The notes: a model not told the origin generated them from the letters alone. 43,998 nt of DNA from Planctomycetota bacterium (GCA_050186825.1 JBFWYD010000031.1:1-43998), one strand, 5' to 3'. Shown: positions 5,189 to 11,433, counted from the first letter of the stretch. Program-made: numbers and translations.

Positions 5189-6241
5189 TTAGCCGACCGA
5201 GGACGCCGCGAGGCTCTGGTGGCGCGAGCGGGTGTCGCGCGCCTTGGCCGCGGGCTGCTCGACCGGGGCCGGCTTGGCCGGGGCCGGCTTGGCGGGCGGC
5301 TCCGTGGCCGCCGGCTGCTGGTCCTCGGCCTCGCCGGTCGCGGCCTCGAGCTCGAGGTCCTCGAGCTCGTCCTCGTCGTCGTCGCCCTTCTTCCCGCCCT
5401 CGCGGCTGCGCTTGTTGTTCGCCTTGATCAGCTGCTGGGCCTTGTTGAAGGTGATCGGGGCCACGATCGGCTCGTGGCGCCCCTTGACGTGGATGTCCCC
5501 GAAGTGGACGCGGCCGATGTAGGTGTCGTTCTTGAGGATCCAGGAGACCCCCGCCCGCGACCACTGCTTGCTCCGCCGCGTCCTGAGGCCCTGCTCGTCG
5601 AGGAGCTTGATCAGCCGCTTCATGCTGCGCAGGCGCAGGTACTCGCGAAAGATCAGCTTGACGACCTCGGCCTCCACCTCGTCCGGCACCAACATCACGC
5701 CCTCGCTCGAGCGCTTGTCGTAGTCGCGCCGGTAGCCGTAGGGAGCGGGGCCGCTCTGGTGCTTGCCCTGGCGGGCCCCCTCCTCGCGACCCTTCAGCAG
5801 GCGCTGCGCGATCTCGCGCTTGCGCTCCACCTCGTCGCTCTTGCGCGCCGCGACCTTCTTCGGCTGGCGCGCCTTGTAGTCCTCGACGATCGCCCGGAGC
5901 TGGCGGGCCGTGTCGTCGTTGGCGACGAGCACCCGCTTCCCGGCGTTCCGCAGCTCCTCGACGGGGTCGAAGGTGAGCGTGCTGCACAGCCCGCGGAGGC
6001 GGCAGCCGGAGACGATCAAGACCGCCTCCCAGTCGCTCTCCTCCATGTCGTCCAGGATGTTGACGAGCCCTGCGCGGGTGTCCTGGGTGGGGGTCAACCC
6101 GTGGTCGGTGTGGACCTTCTCCAGCGCGAGCCCGGTGTGGGAGGCGAAGGCCTCCAGTCTTCGAGTCTGCTCCTCGAGCGAGGGGAAGCCCCCTTCCTCC
6201 TGCTCGAGGTAGCTGACTCGGGCGTAGGCGACGACCTTCAC
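5189..6241 (-). CDS. serine recombinase. It has a resolvase/invertase-type catalytic domain plus a large-serine-recombinase 'recombinase' domain, lacks the zinc-ribbon/coiled-coil tail, and ends in a Lys/Pro/Ala/Asp-Glu-rich C-terminus
   Basis: The N-terminus MKVVAYARVSYLEQ matches the YxRVS(T)xxQ catalytic serine motif, and the downstream R..L.......D.L.V...RL.R block is present (TRAGLVNILDDMEESDWEAVLIVSGCRLRG). The recombinase-domain signatures APYGYRRD and ILKNDTYIGR follow. The protein is 350 aa with an acidic/KPAPA tail. The GTG start lies 7 nt after the MamK-like gene's stop. Confidence 0.8.
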   Translation of the reverse strand: MKVVAYARVSYLEQEEGGFPSLEEQTRRLEAFASHTGLALEKVHTDHGLTPTQDTRAGLVNILDDMEESDWEAVLIVSGCRLRGLCSTLTFDPVEELRNAGKRVLVANDDTARQLRAIVEDYKARQPKKVAARKSDEVERKREIAQRLLKGREEGARQGKHQSGPAPYGYRRDYDKRSSEGVMLVPDEVEAEVVKLIFREYLRLRSMKRLIKLLDEQGLRTRRSKQWSRAGVSWILKNDTYIGRVHFGDIHVKGRHEPIVAPITFNKAQQLIKANNKRSREGGKKGDDDEDELEDLELEAATGEAEDQQPAATEPPAKPAPAKPAPVEQPAAKARDTRSRHQSLAASSVG

Positions 6242-6248
6242 CGGTCGG

Positions 6249-7337
6249 TTAGCGCAGCTGCTCCCAGGCCTCGACCGGCATGTCGTAGGCGATCTTGAGC
6301 GCCCCGTTCGCGCCGGCGTAGACGGGCTCCTGCACCGGACGGACCTTGCCGCCGCCGTAGCCCTGGAGCGCCTCCTCGAGCGCGCGGTCGAGGCCGTGGA
6401 TGCGGCTGCCGCCGCCGGCCAGGATCACGTTGTTGCGCAGGCGGTCCTGGAACTCGGGGTCGAAGGTCGAGATCAGGCGGTCGACGGCCTCGACGATCGG
6501 CTCGACGATCCGGCTGCAGCCCTTGCGGACCTCGGCGGTCACGTCGAAGGCCTTGGGGCGGCCGCGCACGGGGAAGGTGACCATCACGGGCTCGGCGGCC
6601 TCGGTCACGAAGGCGTGCTTCTCCTTGATCTCGCGCACCATGTTGATGTTGAAGCTGGCGTCGGGGCAGCGGCCCTTGAACAGCTCGAACAGCTGGTGGT
6701 CGATGAAGTCGCCGGCCTGGGTCAGCGTGACCTGGTCGTCCTCGTCGGGCATCGAGCCCTTCATCCGGCAGAGGTCGGTGGTCCCGGCGCCGATGTCGAT
6801 CACCAGGCAGTCGTGGAGCCGGTCCATCCCGTAGGCGACCGAGAAGGGCTCGCTGCAGATCACCACCGAGTCGAGCACCTCACGGGCGGCCTCGATGATC
6901 GACTGCTTGTTGTGGATCGAGGCCTGCGCGGGGCAGCCGATCACGCCGTAGACGAGCTGGCCGGGCTTGGGGCGGGCCAGGCTGACCGCGTGCTGGATCA
7001 GGGCGCGCGCGGCCTCGAGGTTGGCGCTCACGTCCTCGCTCGGGGCGCCGGTCGAGTCGGAGTGCTTGATCACGCCCTTCTCGAGCGGGCGGTAGAGGTC
7101 GAGGGCCAGGCGGTGCGCCATGGCGTCGTCCCCGAACAGCACGTCGCGCTGGAGCAGCTTGCGCGAGACCACGTCGCGCGGGTAGCCGACGATGCTGCTG
7201 ACCGTCTCCCGCACGCCGTTGCTGGCCGAGATCGAGGTCCGCGAGGTGCCGAGGTCGATGCCGACGTAGAGGATCGAGTCGCTCTCGCCCTTCCGGTAGT
7301 TCAGGCGGTCCTGCGCCGCGCTCTTCTGCTTCTCCAT
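6249..7337 (-). CDS. actin-fold ATPase, MamK-like (MreB/ParM/MamK superfamily)
   Basis: Actin-fold signature motifs appear in order: phosphate-1 VGIDLGTSRTSI, connect-1 GVIGCPAQAS, phosphate-2 LVIDIGAGTTDLC, and adenosine/connect-2 ILAGGGSRIHGLDRALEEAL. Local blocks (IVGYPRD, CSEPFSVAYGMDRL, DEDDQVTLTQAGDFIDHQL) resemble MamK more than MreB or ParM, as far as I can recall. The start is ATG 7337-7335 (M27 of the tracker ORF) with a GGGGGAAG RBS 6 nt upstream. Confidence 0.85.
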   Translation of the reverse strand: MEKQKSAAQDRLNYRKGESDSILYVGIDLGTSRTSISASNGVRETVSSIVGYPRDVVSRKLLQRDVLFGDDAMAHRLALDLYRPLEKGVIKHSDSTGAPSEDVSANLEAARALIQHAVSLARPKPGQLVYGVIGCPAQASIHNKQSIIEAAREVLDSVVICSEPFSVAYGMDRLHDCLVIDIGAGTTDLCRMKGSMPDEDDQVTLTQAGDFIDHQLFELFKGRCPDASFNINMVREIKEKHAFVTEAAEPVMVTFPVRGRPKAFDVTAEVRKGCSRIVEPIVEAVDRLISTFDPEFQDRLRNNVILAGGGSRIHGLDRALEEALQGYGGGKVRPVQEPVYAGANGALKIAYDMPVEAWEQLR

Positions 7338-7392: not shown

Positions 7393-8166
7393 CTACGCCC
7401 GACGGCGGAGGCCAAGGTTCTGGTCGATCAGTCCGTTGAGCAGGCCACCCCCCCGGCGGCGCGCTCCCGAATTCGTTCCCAGCCCGCTGGCGGCGGGCGG
7501 CGGCGGCGGCGGCTCAGGGACCGCCGCTGGCGCGGGCGGCGGCTCCGCCCCGCGCGGCTCGGCCGCGTGGGTCCGCCCCGCCGCGGTCGACTGGCCCGGG
7601 TTGCGGAGCTCCACGTTGGCCCGCACCAGGCCCGCCAGGAGGCCCCCGCCGCCGCGCGGCATGGGCCGCGTCGTGTGTCCCGCGCCCTGGCTGGGCGCGC
7701 CCAGGCCCGCGGGCCGGCTCGGCGCCGCAGCCAGCGGCGTCGCGGCGACCGGCGCAGCGGCGACCGGCCCGTGCCCGAGCGGCGCGGCGACCGGCCCGTG
7801 CCCGAGCGGCGCGGCGACCGGCCCGTGCCCGAGCGGCCCGGCGACCGGCGCCGCGGCGGCGCGCTCGAGCCGCGCGGCGGCGCGCTCGAGCCTGGCCGCG
7901 ACCGCGGCCAGGCCCTCGCGCTCGCTGGCGCGCTCGGCCAGGCGCGCCTGCGCCTCGGCCAGCCGCTGGGCCAGCGCGTCGCGCTCGGCGCGCAGCCGGT
8001 CCAGCTCCGCCTGCGTCGGGCCCCCGCGGAGCTCGGCGCGCAGGCGCGCCACCTCCTCGCGCAGCCGGTTCCGCTCCTCCGAGAGGCGGGCGATGATCTC
8101 CACCGCGGCCCGCGGCAAGTCGCGGGTGCGGGAGAGGATCGCGGGGCTGCGCTCGAGGGTGGCCAC
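7393..8166 (-). CDS. coiled-coil plus Ala/Pro-rich repeat protein (candidate filament-associated adaptor)
   Basis: A GTG start follows a GGAG that overlaps the upstream stop (TGAGGAGCGAACACGTG). The N-terminal ~110 aa form a heptad-like coiled coil (ERNRLREEVARLRAELR...LAEAQARLAERASEREGLAAVAARLERAAARLERAAA). Then come three tandem GHGPVAAPL repeats, an Ala/Pro linker, and two copies of a GGGLL.GL...N..LR motif. Only the 3' ~775 nt of the 509-aa tracker ORF look protein-like. Confidence 0.5.
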   Translation of the reverse strand: MATLERSPAILSRTRDLPRAAVEIIARLSEERNRLREEVARLRAELRGGPTQAELDRLRAERDALAQRLAEAQARLAERASEREGLAAVAARLERAAARLERAAAAPVAGPLGHGPVAAPLGHGPVAAPLGHGPVAAAPVAATPLAAAPSRPAGLGAPSQGAGHTTRPMPRGGGGLLAGLVRANVELRNPGQSTAAGRTHAAEPRGAEPPPAPAAVPEPPPPPPAASGLGTNSGARRRGGGLLNGLIDQNLGLRRRA

Positions 8167-8177
8167 GTGTTCGCTCC

Positions 8178-9221
8178 TCAGCGGCCCTTGTGGCCGGGGC
8201 CGAAGCCGAAGCCGAAGGCGCCGAACTCCTGCTTGGCCCGGCGGACGGTGCTCCGCCGCGACTCGTCGGGCTCGGCGGCCTTGGCCGGCGCGGGCGCGGC
8301 GGGCTCTTCGGCCACGACCTCTGGCTCGGGTTCGGCCTTGGGCTCGAGCTCGGCCACGCGCTCGGCCAGCTGCGCCCGCTCCAGGGTCAGCTCGGCCAGC
8401 TGCTTGGCGTCGGCCTCGCGGGCCTGGTGCAGCTCGGCCGCCTCGCGGCGGGCCGCCTCGGCCTGGGCGCGCAGCGCGGTCAGGTCCTCGGCCAGGCTCG
8501 CGCAGCGCTTGAGGTAGGTGTCGCGCTCCTCGCGGAACTGGTCGCGCTCGCGGCGCATCCCGTCGCGCTCCTGGCGGAGCTGCTCGCGCTCGCTCGCCAT
8601 GGCGTCGCGCTCGTCCACGGTCCGGTCGCGCTCGTCTCGGAACTGCTCCAGGTCGTGGCGCAGGGCCTCGACCTCGCTCTCGAGCCGGTCGCGCTCGCGC
8701 TCGAGCTTGTCCCGCTCGGACTGGATCGAGCCCAGGTTCCCCTCGAGGTCCGCGTTGCGCCCCAGCTCCTCGTCCAGCCGCTCGCGCGCGCTGGTCTGGA
8801 GCCGCTTGAGGTTCTTCTCCAGCGAGCCGATCTGCGCGCGCAGCCGGGCCCGCTCGGCCAGCAGCTCGCGGATGTCCTGCTCCTGGAGCTTCTCGCCCGC
8901 CTCGCGGCCGAGGGCCTGGCACACCTCGTCGACCGCCGCCTGCAGCCGGCCGCGCTCGGCCTCGACCAGGCCCTTGGCGTGCTCGAGCTCCTTCTTCTCC
9001 TTGCCGAGCTTGGCGTTCTCCTGGAGCAGCCGCTCCACCCGCCGCTGGGCCGCGTCCTCGTCGCTGCTCGCGCCCTCCTGCTTGAGCTTCCCCAGGAGCT
9101 CGATCAGCTGGCTGCGCTCGATCACGCGCACGTTGTCGACCTTGGCCTTGCGCAGCTCGCGCACGTTCAGCGTGCGGGTGGCGGAGCGCAGCGCGCCGGA
9201 CAGCTCGTCGTCGAAGCTCAT
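8178..9221 (-). CDS. long coiled-coil protein with acidic Pro/Glu-rich C-terminal region and a GFGFGPG terminal motif
   Basis: 347 aa from ATG 9221-9219 with a strong RBS GGAGGAGGAAGG. About 250 aa of continuous heptad-rich E/R/L/Q/D coiled coil (ERDKLERERDRLESEVEALRHDLEQFRDERDR...) are followed by EPKAEPEPEVVAEEPAAPAPAKAAEPDES and RRAKQEFGAFGFGFGPGHKGR. The upstream 139 codons of the tracker ORF are Arg/Ala/Pro junk. Confidence 0.6.
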   Translation of the reverse strand: MSFDDELSGALRSATRTLNVRELRKAKVDNVRVIERSQLIELLGKLKQEGASSDEDAAQRRVERLLQENAKLGKEKKELEHAKGLVEAERGRLQAAVDEVCQALGREAGEKLQEQDIRELLAERARLRAQIGSLEKNLKRLQTSARERLDEELGRNADLEGNLGSIQSERDKLERERDRLESEVEALRHDLEQFRDERDRTVDERDAMASEREQLRQERDGMRRERDQFREERDTYLKRCASLAEDLTALRAQAEAARREAAELHQAREADAKQLAELTLERAQLAERVAELEPKAEPEPEVVAEEPAAPAPAKAAEPDESRRSTVRRAKQEFGAFGFGFGPGHKGR

Positions 9222-9283: not shown

Positions 9284-9335
9284 CGGAAAATTCATGAGTC
9301 GGCTTGTGGGGGATTTCGAAAAAATCACGAGGCCG
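9284..9335. promoter_or_regulatory. AT-rich patch with the near-palindrome GATTTCGAAAAAATC, in the divergent promoter region between the coiled-coil/MamK-like operon (minus) and the ABC transporter operon (plus)
   Basis: This is the only markedly AT-rich 50 nt in a ~390-bp divergent intergenic region (ggaaaattcatgagtcggcttgtgggggatttcgaaaaaatcacgagg). The dyad symmetry suggests an operator or -10/-35 context. No convincing TTGACA/TATAAT pair could be assigned. Confidence 0.25.
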
Positions 9336-9615
9336 CTCCCAGAGCGGGTCCGCGCGCATCGCCGGGGCCTCGGGGCCGTCGCTTCGCCGCACAGGTCCTC
9401 CCCGCCAGGGCCCATCGCTCCGCCCCCGCGCGGGAGTCGATTGTTCAGGCGCATCCGACAGGGATGTGTGCAGTGTTCGGCCGACTGCACTGAGGCGACC
9501 GCCCATCGCCCTGGGCGCCGCTCGGCGCGCGGACCCACCCATCGCGGCGGGCGATGGGCGAAGGGCGCGGGTCGCCGCCGCCTGTGGGGACGACCCCAGG
9601 GAATAAGATCCCCGC

Positions 9616-11433
9616 GTGATCGAGGTCCAGGCCCTCACCCAGCGCTACGGGAGCTACGAGGCGGTCCGCGAGCTGAGCTTCGCCCTGGGCGCGGGGGAGG
9701 TGGTCGGCTTCCTCGGCCCCAACGGGGCGGGCAAGTCGACGACCCTCAAGGTGATCGCGAGCTTCCTGGCCCCGAGCGCCGGCCGGGTCAGCGTCGGGGG
9801 CTGCGACGTGGCCCGCGACCCCCTCGGGGTCCGGGCCCGGCTGGGCTACCTGCCCGAGCACTGCCCCCTCTACGAGGAGATGCTCGCGCGCGAGCTGCTC
9901 GACTTCGCCGCGCGCGTCCGCGGCCTGAGCCGCGCCGAGCGCGCCGCGGCCCGCGCGCGCGTGGTCGAGCGCTGCCGGCTGGAGGAGGTGATCGAGCGCC
10001 CGGTCAGCGACCTGAGCAAGGGCTACCGCCAGCGCCTCGGGCTGGCGACCGCCCTCCTGCACGACCCCCGGATCCTGGTCCTCGACGAGCCGACCAGCGG
10101 GCTGGACCCGAACCAGGTGCTCGAGATGCGTGCGCTCGTGCGCGAGCTGGGCCAGGAGCGCACGGTCCTGTTCAGCAGCCACGTGCTCTCCGAGGTCGAG
10201 GCCACCTGCGAGCGCGTGGTCGTGATCCACCGCGGCCGCCTGGTCGCGGACGACGCGGTGGCGAGCCTGGCGCGGCGGATCACCGGAGGGGCGCTCGACG
10301 TCCGTGGGGCGGAGGCCGAGGCGGTCGCAGGCGTCCCAGGCGTGGCCGAGGCCGTGGCGCTCGCCGACGGGCGGGTGCGCGCGCGGCCGCGGGCCGGCGT
10401 CGAGGACCTCGCGGCGCGGCTGTTCCGCTGGGCGGCCGGGAGCGGCCGGGTGCTCGTGGAGATAGCGCCGCAGCGGGTCACGCTCGAGGACGTGTTCGCG
10501 GCGCTGACCGCGGATTCGAAGGCGGTCGCTCCGCAGGCTACGGGATCAGGAGCCGCGGAGGCGGCTCTCCCTAGCGCGGCGCAGAGCCGCAGAGCCGCAG
10601 AGGGGCCCTCGCAGGAGCCGGCGCGCGACTCGGAGACGCCGGATTCGCAGGCGGCGGCTACCGAAGCGGGGGGGACAGGAGCTGCGAAGGCGTTGGATTT
10701 CAGCGCAGAGATCGCAGAGAGCGCGGAGATCGGTGGGTGTGAGCGAAGGCGCGGCTCCGATCCGTCGGGTGAAGGAGAGAAAACGAGGGAGAGAGACTCG
10801 GATTCGGATTCGGCTTCGGACTCCCCCCCGGCCTCGGATGCGACCCCTCGCTCACACCCCGCGATCTCCGCGATCTCTGCGATCTCTGCGCTGAATATCA
10901 ACGCTGTCGCACCCCCTCACGACCCCGAGCTCGCAGCCCGCTCCGGCTGTGAGTCTCCGGGCTCGGTCTCGGACTCGGACTCGGTCTCGGACTCGGACTC
11001 GGACTCGGACTCGGTCTCGGACTCGGTCTCGGTCTCGGACTCGGACTCGGCCTCGGCCTCGGCCTCGGCCTCGGACTCGGCCTCGGCCTCGGCCTCGGAC
11101 TCGGACTCGGTCTCCGCCTCGGACTCGGACTCGGACTCGGACTCGGACTCGGACTCGGACTCGGTCTCGGACTCGGACTCGGACTCGGACTCGGACTCGG
11201 ACTCGGACTCGGACTCGGACTCGCCCTCGGACTCGCCCTCGGACTCGGACTCGCGCCCTCGCTCACACCCACCGATCTCCGCGGACTCTGCGATCTCTGC
11301 GCTGAATAACAACGCTGTCGCACACCCTCGCGATCCCGACCTCGCAACTCGCCCCCGCTCAGAGTCTCCGGCCTCGGCCTCGGCCTCGGCCTCGGACTCG
11401 GACTCGGCTTCGGACCCGGAGCGCCCCACGTGA
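9616..11433 (+). CDS. ABC transporter ATP-binding protein (GldA-like; ABC-2/gliding-motility-associated type) carrying a ~300-aa low-complexity C-terminal extension encoded by a repeat element
   Basis: Walker [11 protein letters not shown]-loop, ABC signature LSKGYRQRL, Walker [13 protein letters not shown] and H-loop SSHVL are all present. The ATPase fold ends near LEDVFAALT (about nt 10530). The ORF then continues without a stop through an inverted-repeat element and (GACTCG)n arrays that encode (SD)n, up to TGA 11431-11433, which overlaps the GTG of the next gene. Confidence 0.8.
10540..11430. repeat. composite dispersed repeat (copy 1): unit A (~10540-10750), unit B (~10845-10975), (GACTCG)n-type hexanucleotide microsatellite arrays (~10958-11260 and ~11378-11425), and a second partial unit B (~11255-11385)
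   Basis: Near-identical sequence (>90% by eye) recurs at 17735-18400. Unit A is gcagaggggccctc...gattcgcaggcggcggct(a/g)ccgaagcggggg...gttggatttcagcgcagagatcgcagagagcgcggagatcg. Unit B is cgc(t/c)cacaccc(a/g)ccgatctccgcg.actctgcgatctctgcgctgaata(t/a)caacgctgtcgcac.ccctc.cgatccc and occurs 3 times in the window. The tcggactcggac tracts are directly visible. Confidence 0.9.
10699..10895. repeat. ~50-bp imperfect inverted repeats flanking a ~95-nt loop (potential large hairpin of the MITE/RPE type)
   Basis: The left arm (ttcagcgcagagatcgcagagagcgcggagatcggtgggtgtgagcgaagg) and right arm (cctcgctcacaccccgcgatctccgcgatctctgcgatctctgcgctgaa) are reverse complements with about 3 mismatches. The same architecture recurs at ~17897-18127. 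Confidence 0.8.

Follow-up and report, generated by a model that had tools for sequence, protein, structure and literature searches.

We report here on a 257-amino-acid (aa) protein encoded next to a MamK-family actin-like gene in a Planctomycetota bacterium (GCA_050186825.1, JBFWYD010000031.1:1-43998; "the window" is this whole stretch of 43,998 nucleotides (nt)). On balance we think it probable that this protein, hereafter the candidate adaptor, is a multivalent coiled-coil adaptor with predicted actin-docking helices that serves the MamK-family cytoskeleton of an uncultured Planctomycetota lineage. The evidence that carries this reading is a short Gly/Leu motif, present twice in the protein, which recurs at or near the C-terminus of proteins encoded directly upstream of MamK-like genes. 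The candidate adaptor is the second of four co-directional genes, lying between an upstream coiled-coil protein and the actin, which is followed by a recombinase-family protein (coordinates in Table 1). This cassette of four was found in the same order in every related locus with enough sequence, with differing flanks. Across these loci the actin is 74-89% identical and the candidate adaptor only 38-61%. The assignment of the actin is firm: it scores 430.9 bits against the NCBIfam MamK profile NF040964, whose cutoff is 400, and its residues 17-362 match the MamK structure 5LJW with E 1.1e-83, with further matches to the MamK structures 5JYG and 5LJV.

Nowhere in the C-terminal half of the candidate adaptor is conservation stronger than in the motif. 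Its first copy reads GGGGLLAGLVRANVELR (within aa 165-188) and its second GGGLLNGLIDQNLGLRRRA (within aa 236-257); the consensus in the family is GGG-[LM]LxxL[VI]xxN[VL]xLR. Both copies are kept in every orthologue aligned: N183, L186, L245 and N249 are invariant, and G174, L176, L179, R187, G239, G240, L242 and R253 are near-invariant. Most relatives have two copies, those with a 500-830-aa coiled coil have one, and P0142/L008, P0144, P0147 and P0149 have three. The first-pass annotation of this DNA had asked whether repeat number varies among orthologues; that of the Gly/Leu motif does, from one to three copies, while the other repeat it had singled out (GHGPVAAPL) is absent from the orthologues altogether.

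An AlphaFold2 (AF2) model, built on a 29-sequence alignment, gives two long helices (aa 16-46 and 51-104) with a predicted local distance difference test (pLDDT) above 90, a disordered middle (pLDDT about 50) in which the 9-aa repeat lies, and a pair of short helices, at 175-187 and 241-255, that coincide with the two Gly/Leu motifs. The heptad periodicity of the long helices is genuine and is that of a coiled coil. In aa 51-104, Leu, Ile, Val or Met occupy 50% of a/d positions against 3% elsewhere, which was reached by 0 of 2000 shuffles; in aa 17-46 the corresponding values are 67% and 14%, reached by 67 of 2000 shuffles. Conservation concentrates in three places, namely the N-terminal helix, near-invariant in the family as LPRAAVEIIARLSAERNRLR, the RLERAxARLE segment that ends the coiled coil, and the two motifs. 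The parts described in the first-pass annotation are thus all present as claimed: the N-terminal coiled coil, the three exact 9-aa repeats with the Ala/Pro linker downstream of them, and the two motif copies with a Pro-rich spacer between.

With the actin alignment we gathered 80 further loci, and at each actin gene we searched three frames of the 700 nt that precede it. A strict pattern placed the motif within 45 residues of a stop codon in 52 of 93 loci; on inspection, many of the loci that it had missed turned out to be false negatives. The relaxed pattern [LMFIV][LMFIV]xx[LMIVF][LIMVFY]xxNxx[LIMVFW][RQKL] was found near the C-terminus of the open reading frame (ORF) directly upstream of the MamK-like gene in 67 of 78 non-redundant loci, where 0.45 would be expected in the searched space given a background of 8 matches per 1.05 million six-frame residues.

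In the distant MamK-like loci (actin 49-65% identical) the four-gene layout is replaced by a single upstream partner protein, which combines a 'KVxVI' domain at its N-terminus with a coiled coil and a GIASIYRxVQGL box and closes with LMxxIFxANLxL[RQ]. The motif persists through KVxVI-domain partners, GGDEF-like partners, coiled coils of 500-830 aa, the split arrangement and an intermediate locus (L096), whose motif protein retains GVPSLY...ILRRLVTDNLALRQ. It is the only feature common to partner proteins with differing N-terminal architectures, and the actin is its sole constant neighbour; only some of the loci have a BY-kinase-like ATPase, and only some the recombinase-like gene. The upstream coiled-coil protein of the window and the single-type partners have homologous N-termini (hhalign 97%, E 4e-11). 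Full-length homology between the candidate adaptor and the single-type partners was not significant (hhalign 27%), the short motif alone being held in common, and the common ancestry of the motif is therefore not proven. To judge from these alignments, the KVxVI domain and the motif are distributed over two proteins in the window's lineage, and the upstream coiled-coil protein and the candidate adaptor are therefore predicted to act together.

Some of these results weigh against docking as the explanation. Eleven of the 78 loci have no motif by the relaxed pattern. Most of the partner proteins are mutually homologous, so that 67 matches do not represent 67 independent events, and the enrichment speaks for strong purifying selection and synteny rather than for contact. 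What gene neighbourhood does strongly support is a link between the motif and the actin, and to this extent the first-pass annotation, which had proposed the motif as an interaction candidate for the downstream actin-like protein, was right; the triple repeat that it named has no conserved role, the protein is not a ParR, and no relation to MamJ was found (see below).

One could object that the motif binds some other partner or another part of the complex, say the KVxVI domain of the coiled-coil protein or a host factor encoded elsewhere, or that it self-associates, the linkage to the actin then being one of operon only. The evidence is after all co-location and not contact, and the proteins of the cassette all have conserved terminal tails (FGFGFG-basic, or R-rich ...ASVxG), which suggests a web of peptide-domain contacts. 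However, no other component is universal. A GGDEF-like domain substitutes for KVxVI in several partners, and neither the ATPase nor the recombinase-like gene is found throughout, whereas the actin, at 49-100% identity, is adjacent in all cases. We regard such a different partner as unlikely.

The helical properties of the motif raise a second objection. On a helical wheel of the 13-residue motif, the apolar positions 1, 2, 5, 6, 10 and 12 take up an arc of about 180 degrees. The two helices might be membrane-targeting amphipathic helices like those of FtsA and MinD, with the actin bound via another region so that filaments are tethered to the membrane. In favour of this, a flexible linker precedes both of these short predicted helices, which lie at the C-terminus or close to it, have a high content of Leu, Ile and Val, and run into basic residues (RRRA, RRRGT). 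Yet the invariant Asn (position 9, at 80 degrees) and the conserved Arg/Gln (position 13) sit inside the 0-180 degree apolar arc, and the hydrophobic moment of the window's copies is low (0.19 and 0.29). Because of the Asn within the apolar arc and the low moment, we favour a protein interface over a lipid-binding helix; the high moment and uninterrupted apolar face of a membrane helix were not found in the window's two copies, which also contain no aromatic residues. Membrane-targeting helices mainly keep an amphipathic pattern, and sequence conservation at fixed positions is atypical of them; here such conservation extends across very divergent partners. Membrane targeting is in our judgement improbable.

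A third alternative is that the candidate adaptor is itself a DNA-binding protein, a centromere-binding adaptor of ParR type from the partition module of an integrated plasmid or phage. The actin-like and recombinase-family neighbours are reminiscent of plasmid partition and resolution genes, and octamers of GCGATGGG are clustered upstream of the cassette: four of the window's six (44 kb; 3.3 expected window-wide) lie within 148 nt, at 9411-9558, in the intergenic space between the cassette and a divergent ABC-transporter gene. First, this cluster is not conserved in eight related loci, which speaks against a conserved centromere. Second, AF2 shows no ribbon-helix-helix (RHH) fold, the N-terminus having no strand and residues 16-104 being helix, and ParR/RHH profiles in Pfam and NCBIfam were unmatched; on these grounds membership of ParR is rejected. 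Third, neither the actin nor the candidate adaptor has a match among the 72,556 plasmids of PLSDB, and the candidate adaptor has none in the viral contigs of IMG/VR, so that plasmid or phage origin is rejected also; the surroundings of the cassette are ordinary chromosome (ABC transporter, kinase, TPR, ankyrin and peptidase genes). Fourth, most members of the recombinase-like family have lost the catalytic Ser. We consider this alternative very unlikely.

The ORF is a real, conserved gene. It occupies a single minus-strand frame of 257 codons, starting with GTG at 8166 and stopping at 7393-7395, with a Shine-Dalgarno-like GGAG 7 nt 5' of the GTG, right behind the stop of the preceding gene. 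Its GC content by codon position is 0.88/0.66/0.95, a signature also seen in the flanking genes (the window is 75.8% GC). NCBI record GCA_050250455.1 (JBFWOT010000064.1), whose sequence matches that of the window without a difference over 9089 nt, calls the same 257-aa gene. Among 5.8 billion proteins searched, 15 were homologues, and a profile run against 1.84 billion cluster representatives matched 29 clusters at E up to 1e-3 (counted as 15 + 14 homologue clusters), all from metagenomes or Planctomycetota metagenome-assembled genomes (MAGs). Long ORFs do occur in several frames here, as high-GC DNA produces them, and the composition of the C-terminal half is biased, but given the third-position GC (GC3), the Shine-Dalgarno-like sequence and orthologues at 38-61% identity in the same slot of a conserved cassette, the notion of a spurious ORF with low-complexity noise for repeats is refuted by the conservation and can be dismissed with near certainty. 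The first-pass annotation had staked its reading on conservation in relatives, both of the ORF and of the motif, and both are conserved. No Pfam or NCBIfam family was found for the candidate adaptor, the upstream coiled-coil protein or the single-type partners.

The GHGPVAAPL repeat fared differently. In the frame PLGHGPVAA it forms three exact copies at aa 111-137 (nt 7756-7836); the DNA unit is 27 nt, in 3.4 copies with 98% matches (Tandem Repeats Finder (TRF) score 179). It was found in none of 28 aligned homologues and is an insertion peculiar to this genome. Linkers of other orthologues hold their own, unrelated tandem repeats (APSTARTTETVYSP twice in P0138, APAREA repeats in P0145), so that the disordered linker appears to be a hotspot for slippage expansions. 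Because the repeat is unique here and other orthologues bear unrelated ones, GHGPVAAPL is best read as a recent replication-slippage duplication in a tolerant linker, probably mere variation in linker length. As a functional element we reject it, since all orthologues are without it; although it had been put forward as a notable feature of the protein, it is lineage-specific and has no conserved role.

How the candidate adaptor might engage actin can be judged against known systems. Gayathri et al. are said to have described, in 2012, the mechanism by which ParR docks on a filament subunit, with a flexible C-terminal helix entering a hydrophobic groove. Short C-terminal helices of proteins encoded beside actin genes bind the hydrophobic groove between subdomains IA and IIA, as do ParR on ParM, arcadin-2 on crenactin, and WH2/thymosin on actin (PMC5173319). 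ParR of type II (ParMRC) plasmid partition is, like the candidate adaptor, encoded beside an actin-like gene, and its C-terminal helix docks in the groove multivalently (PMC5173319). ParR differs in that it is plasmid-borne and has an RHH that binds the parC repeats, whereas the candidate adaptor has an all-helical coiled-coil N-terminus, is chromosomal, has tandem motifs and is accompanied by no conserved centromere-like repeats. Arcadin-2 too lies in the same cluster as its own actin, crenactin, and just its C-terminal peptide of approximately 17 residues binds the IA/IIA groove (PMC5173319). It differs in being archaeal, in having a single motif with a key Trp and in acting as a depolymeriser or sequesterer, and it has no sequence similarity to the candidate adaptor.

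There is a resemblance in layout to tandem WH2-domain actin nucleators. Spire, Cobl and VopL/VopF carry tandem short helices of an LLxxIxxGxxLKK-type pattern on Pro-rich linkers, and are sometimes dimerised by a coiled coil. The candidate adaptor family likewise combines a coiled coil and Pro-rich linkers with one to three copies of [LM]LxxL[VI]xxN[VL]xLR(R), but the spacing is off by one residue, an invariant Asn stands in place of Gly, and the partner is a MamK-family bacterial actin. The Pfam WH2 profile found no match at E up to 10 in the C-terminal regions of the window's protein and of a three-motif relative, and we reject membership of WH2 on that basis; the resemblance is probably convergent at most.

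In magnetotactic bacteria, coiled-coil or repetitive proteins (MamJ; Mad20/23/25/26) work with MamK filaments (PMC12748827). They are functional analogues of the candidate adaptor, but no docking motif is described for MamJ or the Mad proteins, no sequence similarity to them was found, and the window contains no magnetosome genes. A MamJ-reminiscent feature does occur in a coiled-coil partner of locus L096 (L096:1737-3617), which has a long, acidic, repetitive region rich in Ala, Pro, Glu and Val. By sequence the candidate adaptor belongs to neither the ParR nor the WH2 family; the best reading, argued by analogy, is that it would work in the manner of ParR, arcadin-2 and WH2 proteins.

We propose the following mechanism. 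The stalk is made up of the invariant N-terminal helix and of heptad-patterned helix over about 90 residues; behind it come the disordered Pro/Ala linker and the two short motif-bearing helices. Each of these short helices would dock on a MamK-like subunit, most plausibly, by analogy with ParR, arcadin-2 and WH2, in the hydrophobic groove between subdomains IA and IIA. If the coiled coil makes the adaptor at least dimeric, as we suppose, it would for that reason present four or more actin-binding helices on flexible tethers, and could then nucleate filaments, hold filament ends or bridge filaments to cargo. The candidate adaptor may work as a complex with the upstream coiled-coil protein, possibly together with the pseudo-recombinase encoded downstream of the actin.

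That last protein merits description. It matches Pfam Resolvase and Recombinase and has the fold of a catalytic N-terminal domain (NTD) with a Recombinase domain. Its AF2 model (pLDDT 86) consists of a catalytic-like NTD, a long helix and the Recombinase domain, with a tail disordered from about residue 303; Foldseek ranked the integrases of Bxb1, SPbeta and phiC31 highest, and LI integrase aligns with it through its Recombinase domain at a root-mean-square deviation of 2.4-3.7 Å. Its family (P0160-P0241) is a distinct, truncated one of 82 clusters of 190-390 aa, and the zinc ribbon PF13408 was found in none of the 82. The next, distant matches, separated by a score gap from E about 1e-41 to 1e-18, are true large serine recombinases (460-570 aa), 20 of 25 of which have PF13408. 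Among 43 aligned members the nucleophilic Ser is kept in about 14 and is T in about 17; the rest have N, H, L, G, A, I or nothing at that position, and some members have no N-terminal domain at all. No equivalent of R71 was found in the aligned members, and D67 is Cys in the window's protein, so that the Ser/DRxxR signature is not conserved. The Recombinase domain is nearly invariant across the 43. Many members share a contig with a MamK-like gene, also in L096, where the recombinase-like gene encodes a Recombinase domain alone (210 aa). The tail of the window's protein ends in a conserved R-rich ...ASVxG motif. The gene has the look of a domesticated pseudo-recombinase that was probably retained to bind DNA.

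The upstream coiled-coil protein terminates in FGAFGFGFGPGHKGR (window 8181-8228, minus strand). An (F)GFGFG-plus-basic tail is kept in its orthologues in L001, L002, L008, L011, L012 and L096, and GFG boxes also occur inside the long candidate adaptor relatives P0155 and P0159; the GFG tail may be a second short linear motif. Just 5' of the first cassette gene is an AT-rich element, TTTTTC[CG]AAA, conserved between the window (~9285-9345, minus strand), L001, L002 and L004 in a genome that is otherwise 76% GC; it is followed by TGAATTTTCCGA in the window and L004, and is probably a promoter or operator. The ABC-transporter ATPase gene beyond (9616-11433, plus strand) has a C-terminal extension of roughly 300 aa (~10600-11430), with long Ser-Asp (SDSDSD) runs and a duplicated RSHPxISAxSAISALNxNAVAxPxDPxLA.

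Within the wider clade of MamK-like loci, the gene for the BY-kinase-like ATPase (tyrosine-autokinase/MinD-type; L013, L014, L015 and many of L016-L095) often comes before that of the partner. L013 and L014 have a protein of roughly 600 aa further upstream, with a faint HEAT-repeat match in L014 only, and L013 adjoins rpmH. A GGDEF-like N-terminal segment (e.g. LSIGVDRIASLGDLYGHESKG) stands in place of the KVxVI domain in L035, L048, L060, L063, L071, L076, L078 and L080, which hints that these partners are regulatory variants of the adaptor.

Table 1. Cassette genes and sequence features of the candidate adaptor, in window coordinates.
Feature	Position	Strand	Basis
Candidate adaptor gene, 257 aa (coiled coil, disordered linker, two docking-type motifs; docking predicted)	7393..8166	minus	ORF, GC3, source-record call, homologues
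MamK-family actin-like protein, 362 aa, 55 nt 3' of the candidate adaptor gene	6249..7337	minus	NCBIfam MamK profile, MamK structures, 100% match to P0016 ('MamK family actin-like protein')
Upstream coiled-coil protein, 347 aa: N-terminal 'KVxVI' domain, coiled coil, FGFGFG-basic tail	8178..9221	minus	Conserved synteny; hhalign of N-terminus to single-type partners
Serine-recombinase derivative, 350 aa: catalytic-like NTD, Recombinase domain, disordered tail, without zinc ribbon	5189..6241	minus	Pfam, family survey, AF2, Foldseek, conserved synteny
Family-defining N-terminal helix LPRAAVEIIARLSEERNRLREEV, aa 17-39	8050..8118	minus	(Near-)invariant columns P17-E37 in alignments A1 and A3; also in long 500-830-aa relatives
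Two heptad-patterned helices, aa 17-46 and 51-104, including conserved RLERAxARLE	7855..8118	minus	AF2, heptad test
27-nt tandem repeat, 3.4 copies, encoding PLGHGPVAA x3 in disordered linker, lineage-specific	7757..7849	minus	TRF; absent from 28/28 aligned homologues; pLDDT about 50
Motif copy 1 TTRPMPRGGGGLLAGLVRANVELR, aa 165-188	7603..7674	minus	Invariant R166, R170, G174, L176, N183, L186, R187 in A1; AF2 helix 175-187
Pro-rich spacer between motifs, aa 207-227	7486..7548	minus	Sequence; not conserved among orthologues, length variable
Motif copy 2 RRRGGGLLNGLIDQNLGLRRRA, aa 236-257, extreme C-terminus	7396..7461	minus	Invariant L245, N249, R253; AF2 helix 241-255; core shared with C-terminal motif of distant partners

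A larger picture can be drawn from these parts. The cassette would be a previously unrecognised actin machine of Planctomycetota without FtsZ, in which tandem WH2-like docking helices on a coiled-coil dimer nucleate or end-track MamK-type filaments, with a split-off FGFGFG partner and a domesticated, DNA-binding recombinase, so that the dynamics of the filaments would be linked with the chromosome, in segregation or dimer handling, or else with division or shape change. In this full form the proposal is tentative, and we hold it to be doubtful.

In Planctomycetota, bacteria that lack FtsZ (PMC11032199), MamK-like actins are widespread: of the candidate proteins scored, 4639 match at E up to 1e-30. 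One of them is saltatorellin, of the Saltatorellus clade, which forms filaments in E. coli and was proposed as a driver of shape-shifting (bioRxiv 10.1101/817700); that clade consists of high-GC (about 70%) planctomycete relatives without FtsZ (PMC11032199). The window's actin may correspond to saltatorellin. The saltatorellin paper makes no mention of neighbouring genes, partners or a recombinase (bioRxiv 10.1101/817700).

The setting in which the finding matters is thus division, DNA segregation and, in the Saltatorellus clade, shape change of Planctomycetota that do without FtsZ. The 13-residue motif marks the partner gene in most loci and gives a direct experimental handle. If our reading is true, the tandem, Pro-linked motifs would be a bacterial parallel to eukaryotic WH2 arrays, and if that of the recombinase-like gene is true, its product would stand among the few serine recombinases to have been domesticated for a structural or DNA-anchoring function. 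The motif would most likely be the means by which the MamK-type cytoskeleton of these uncultured Planctomycetota is engaged.
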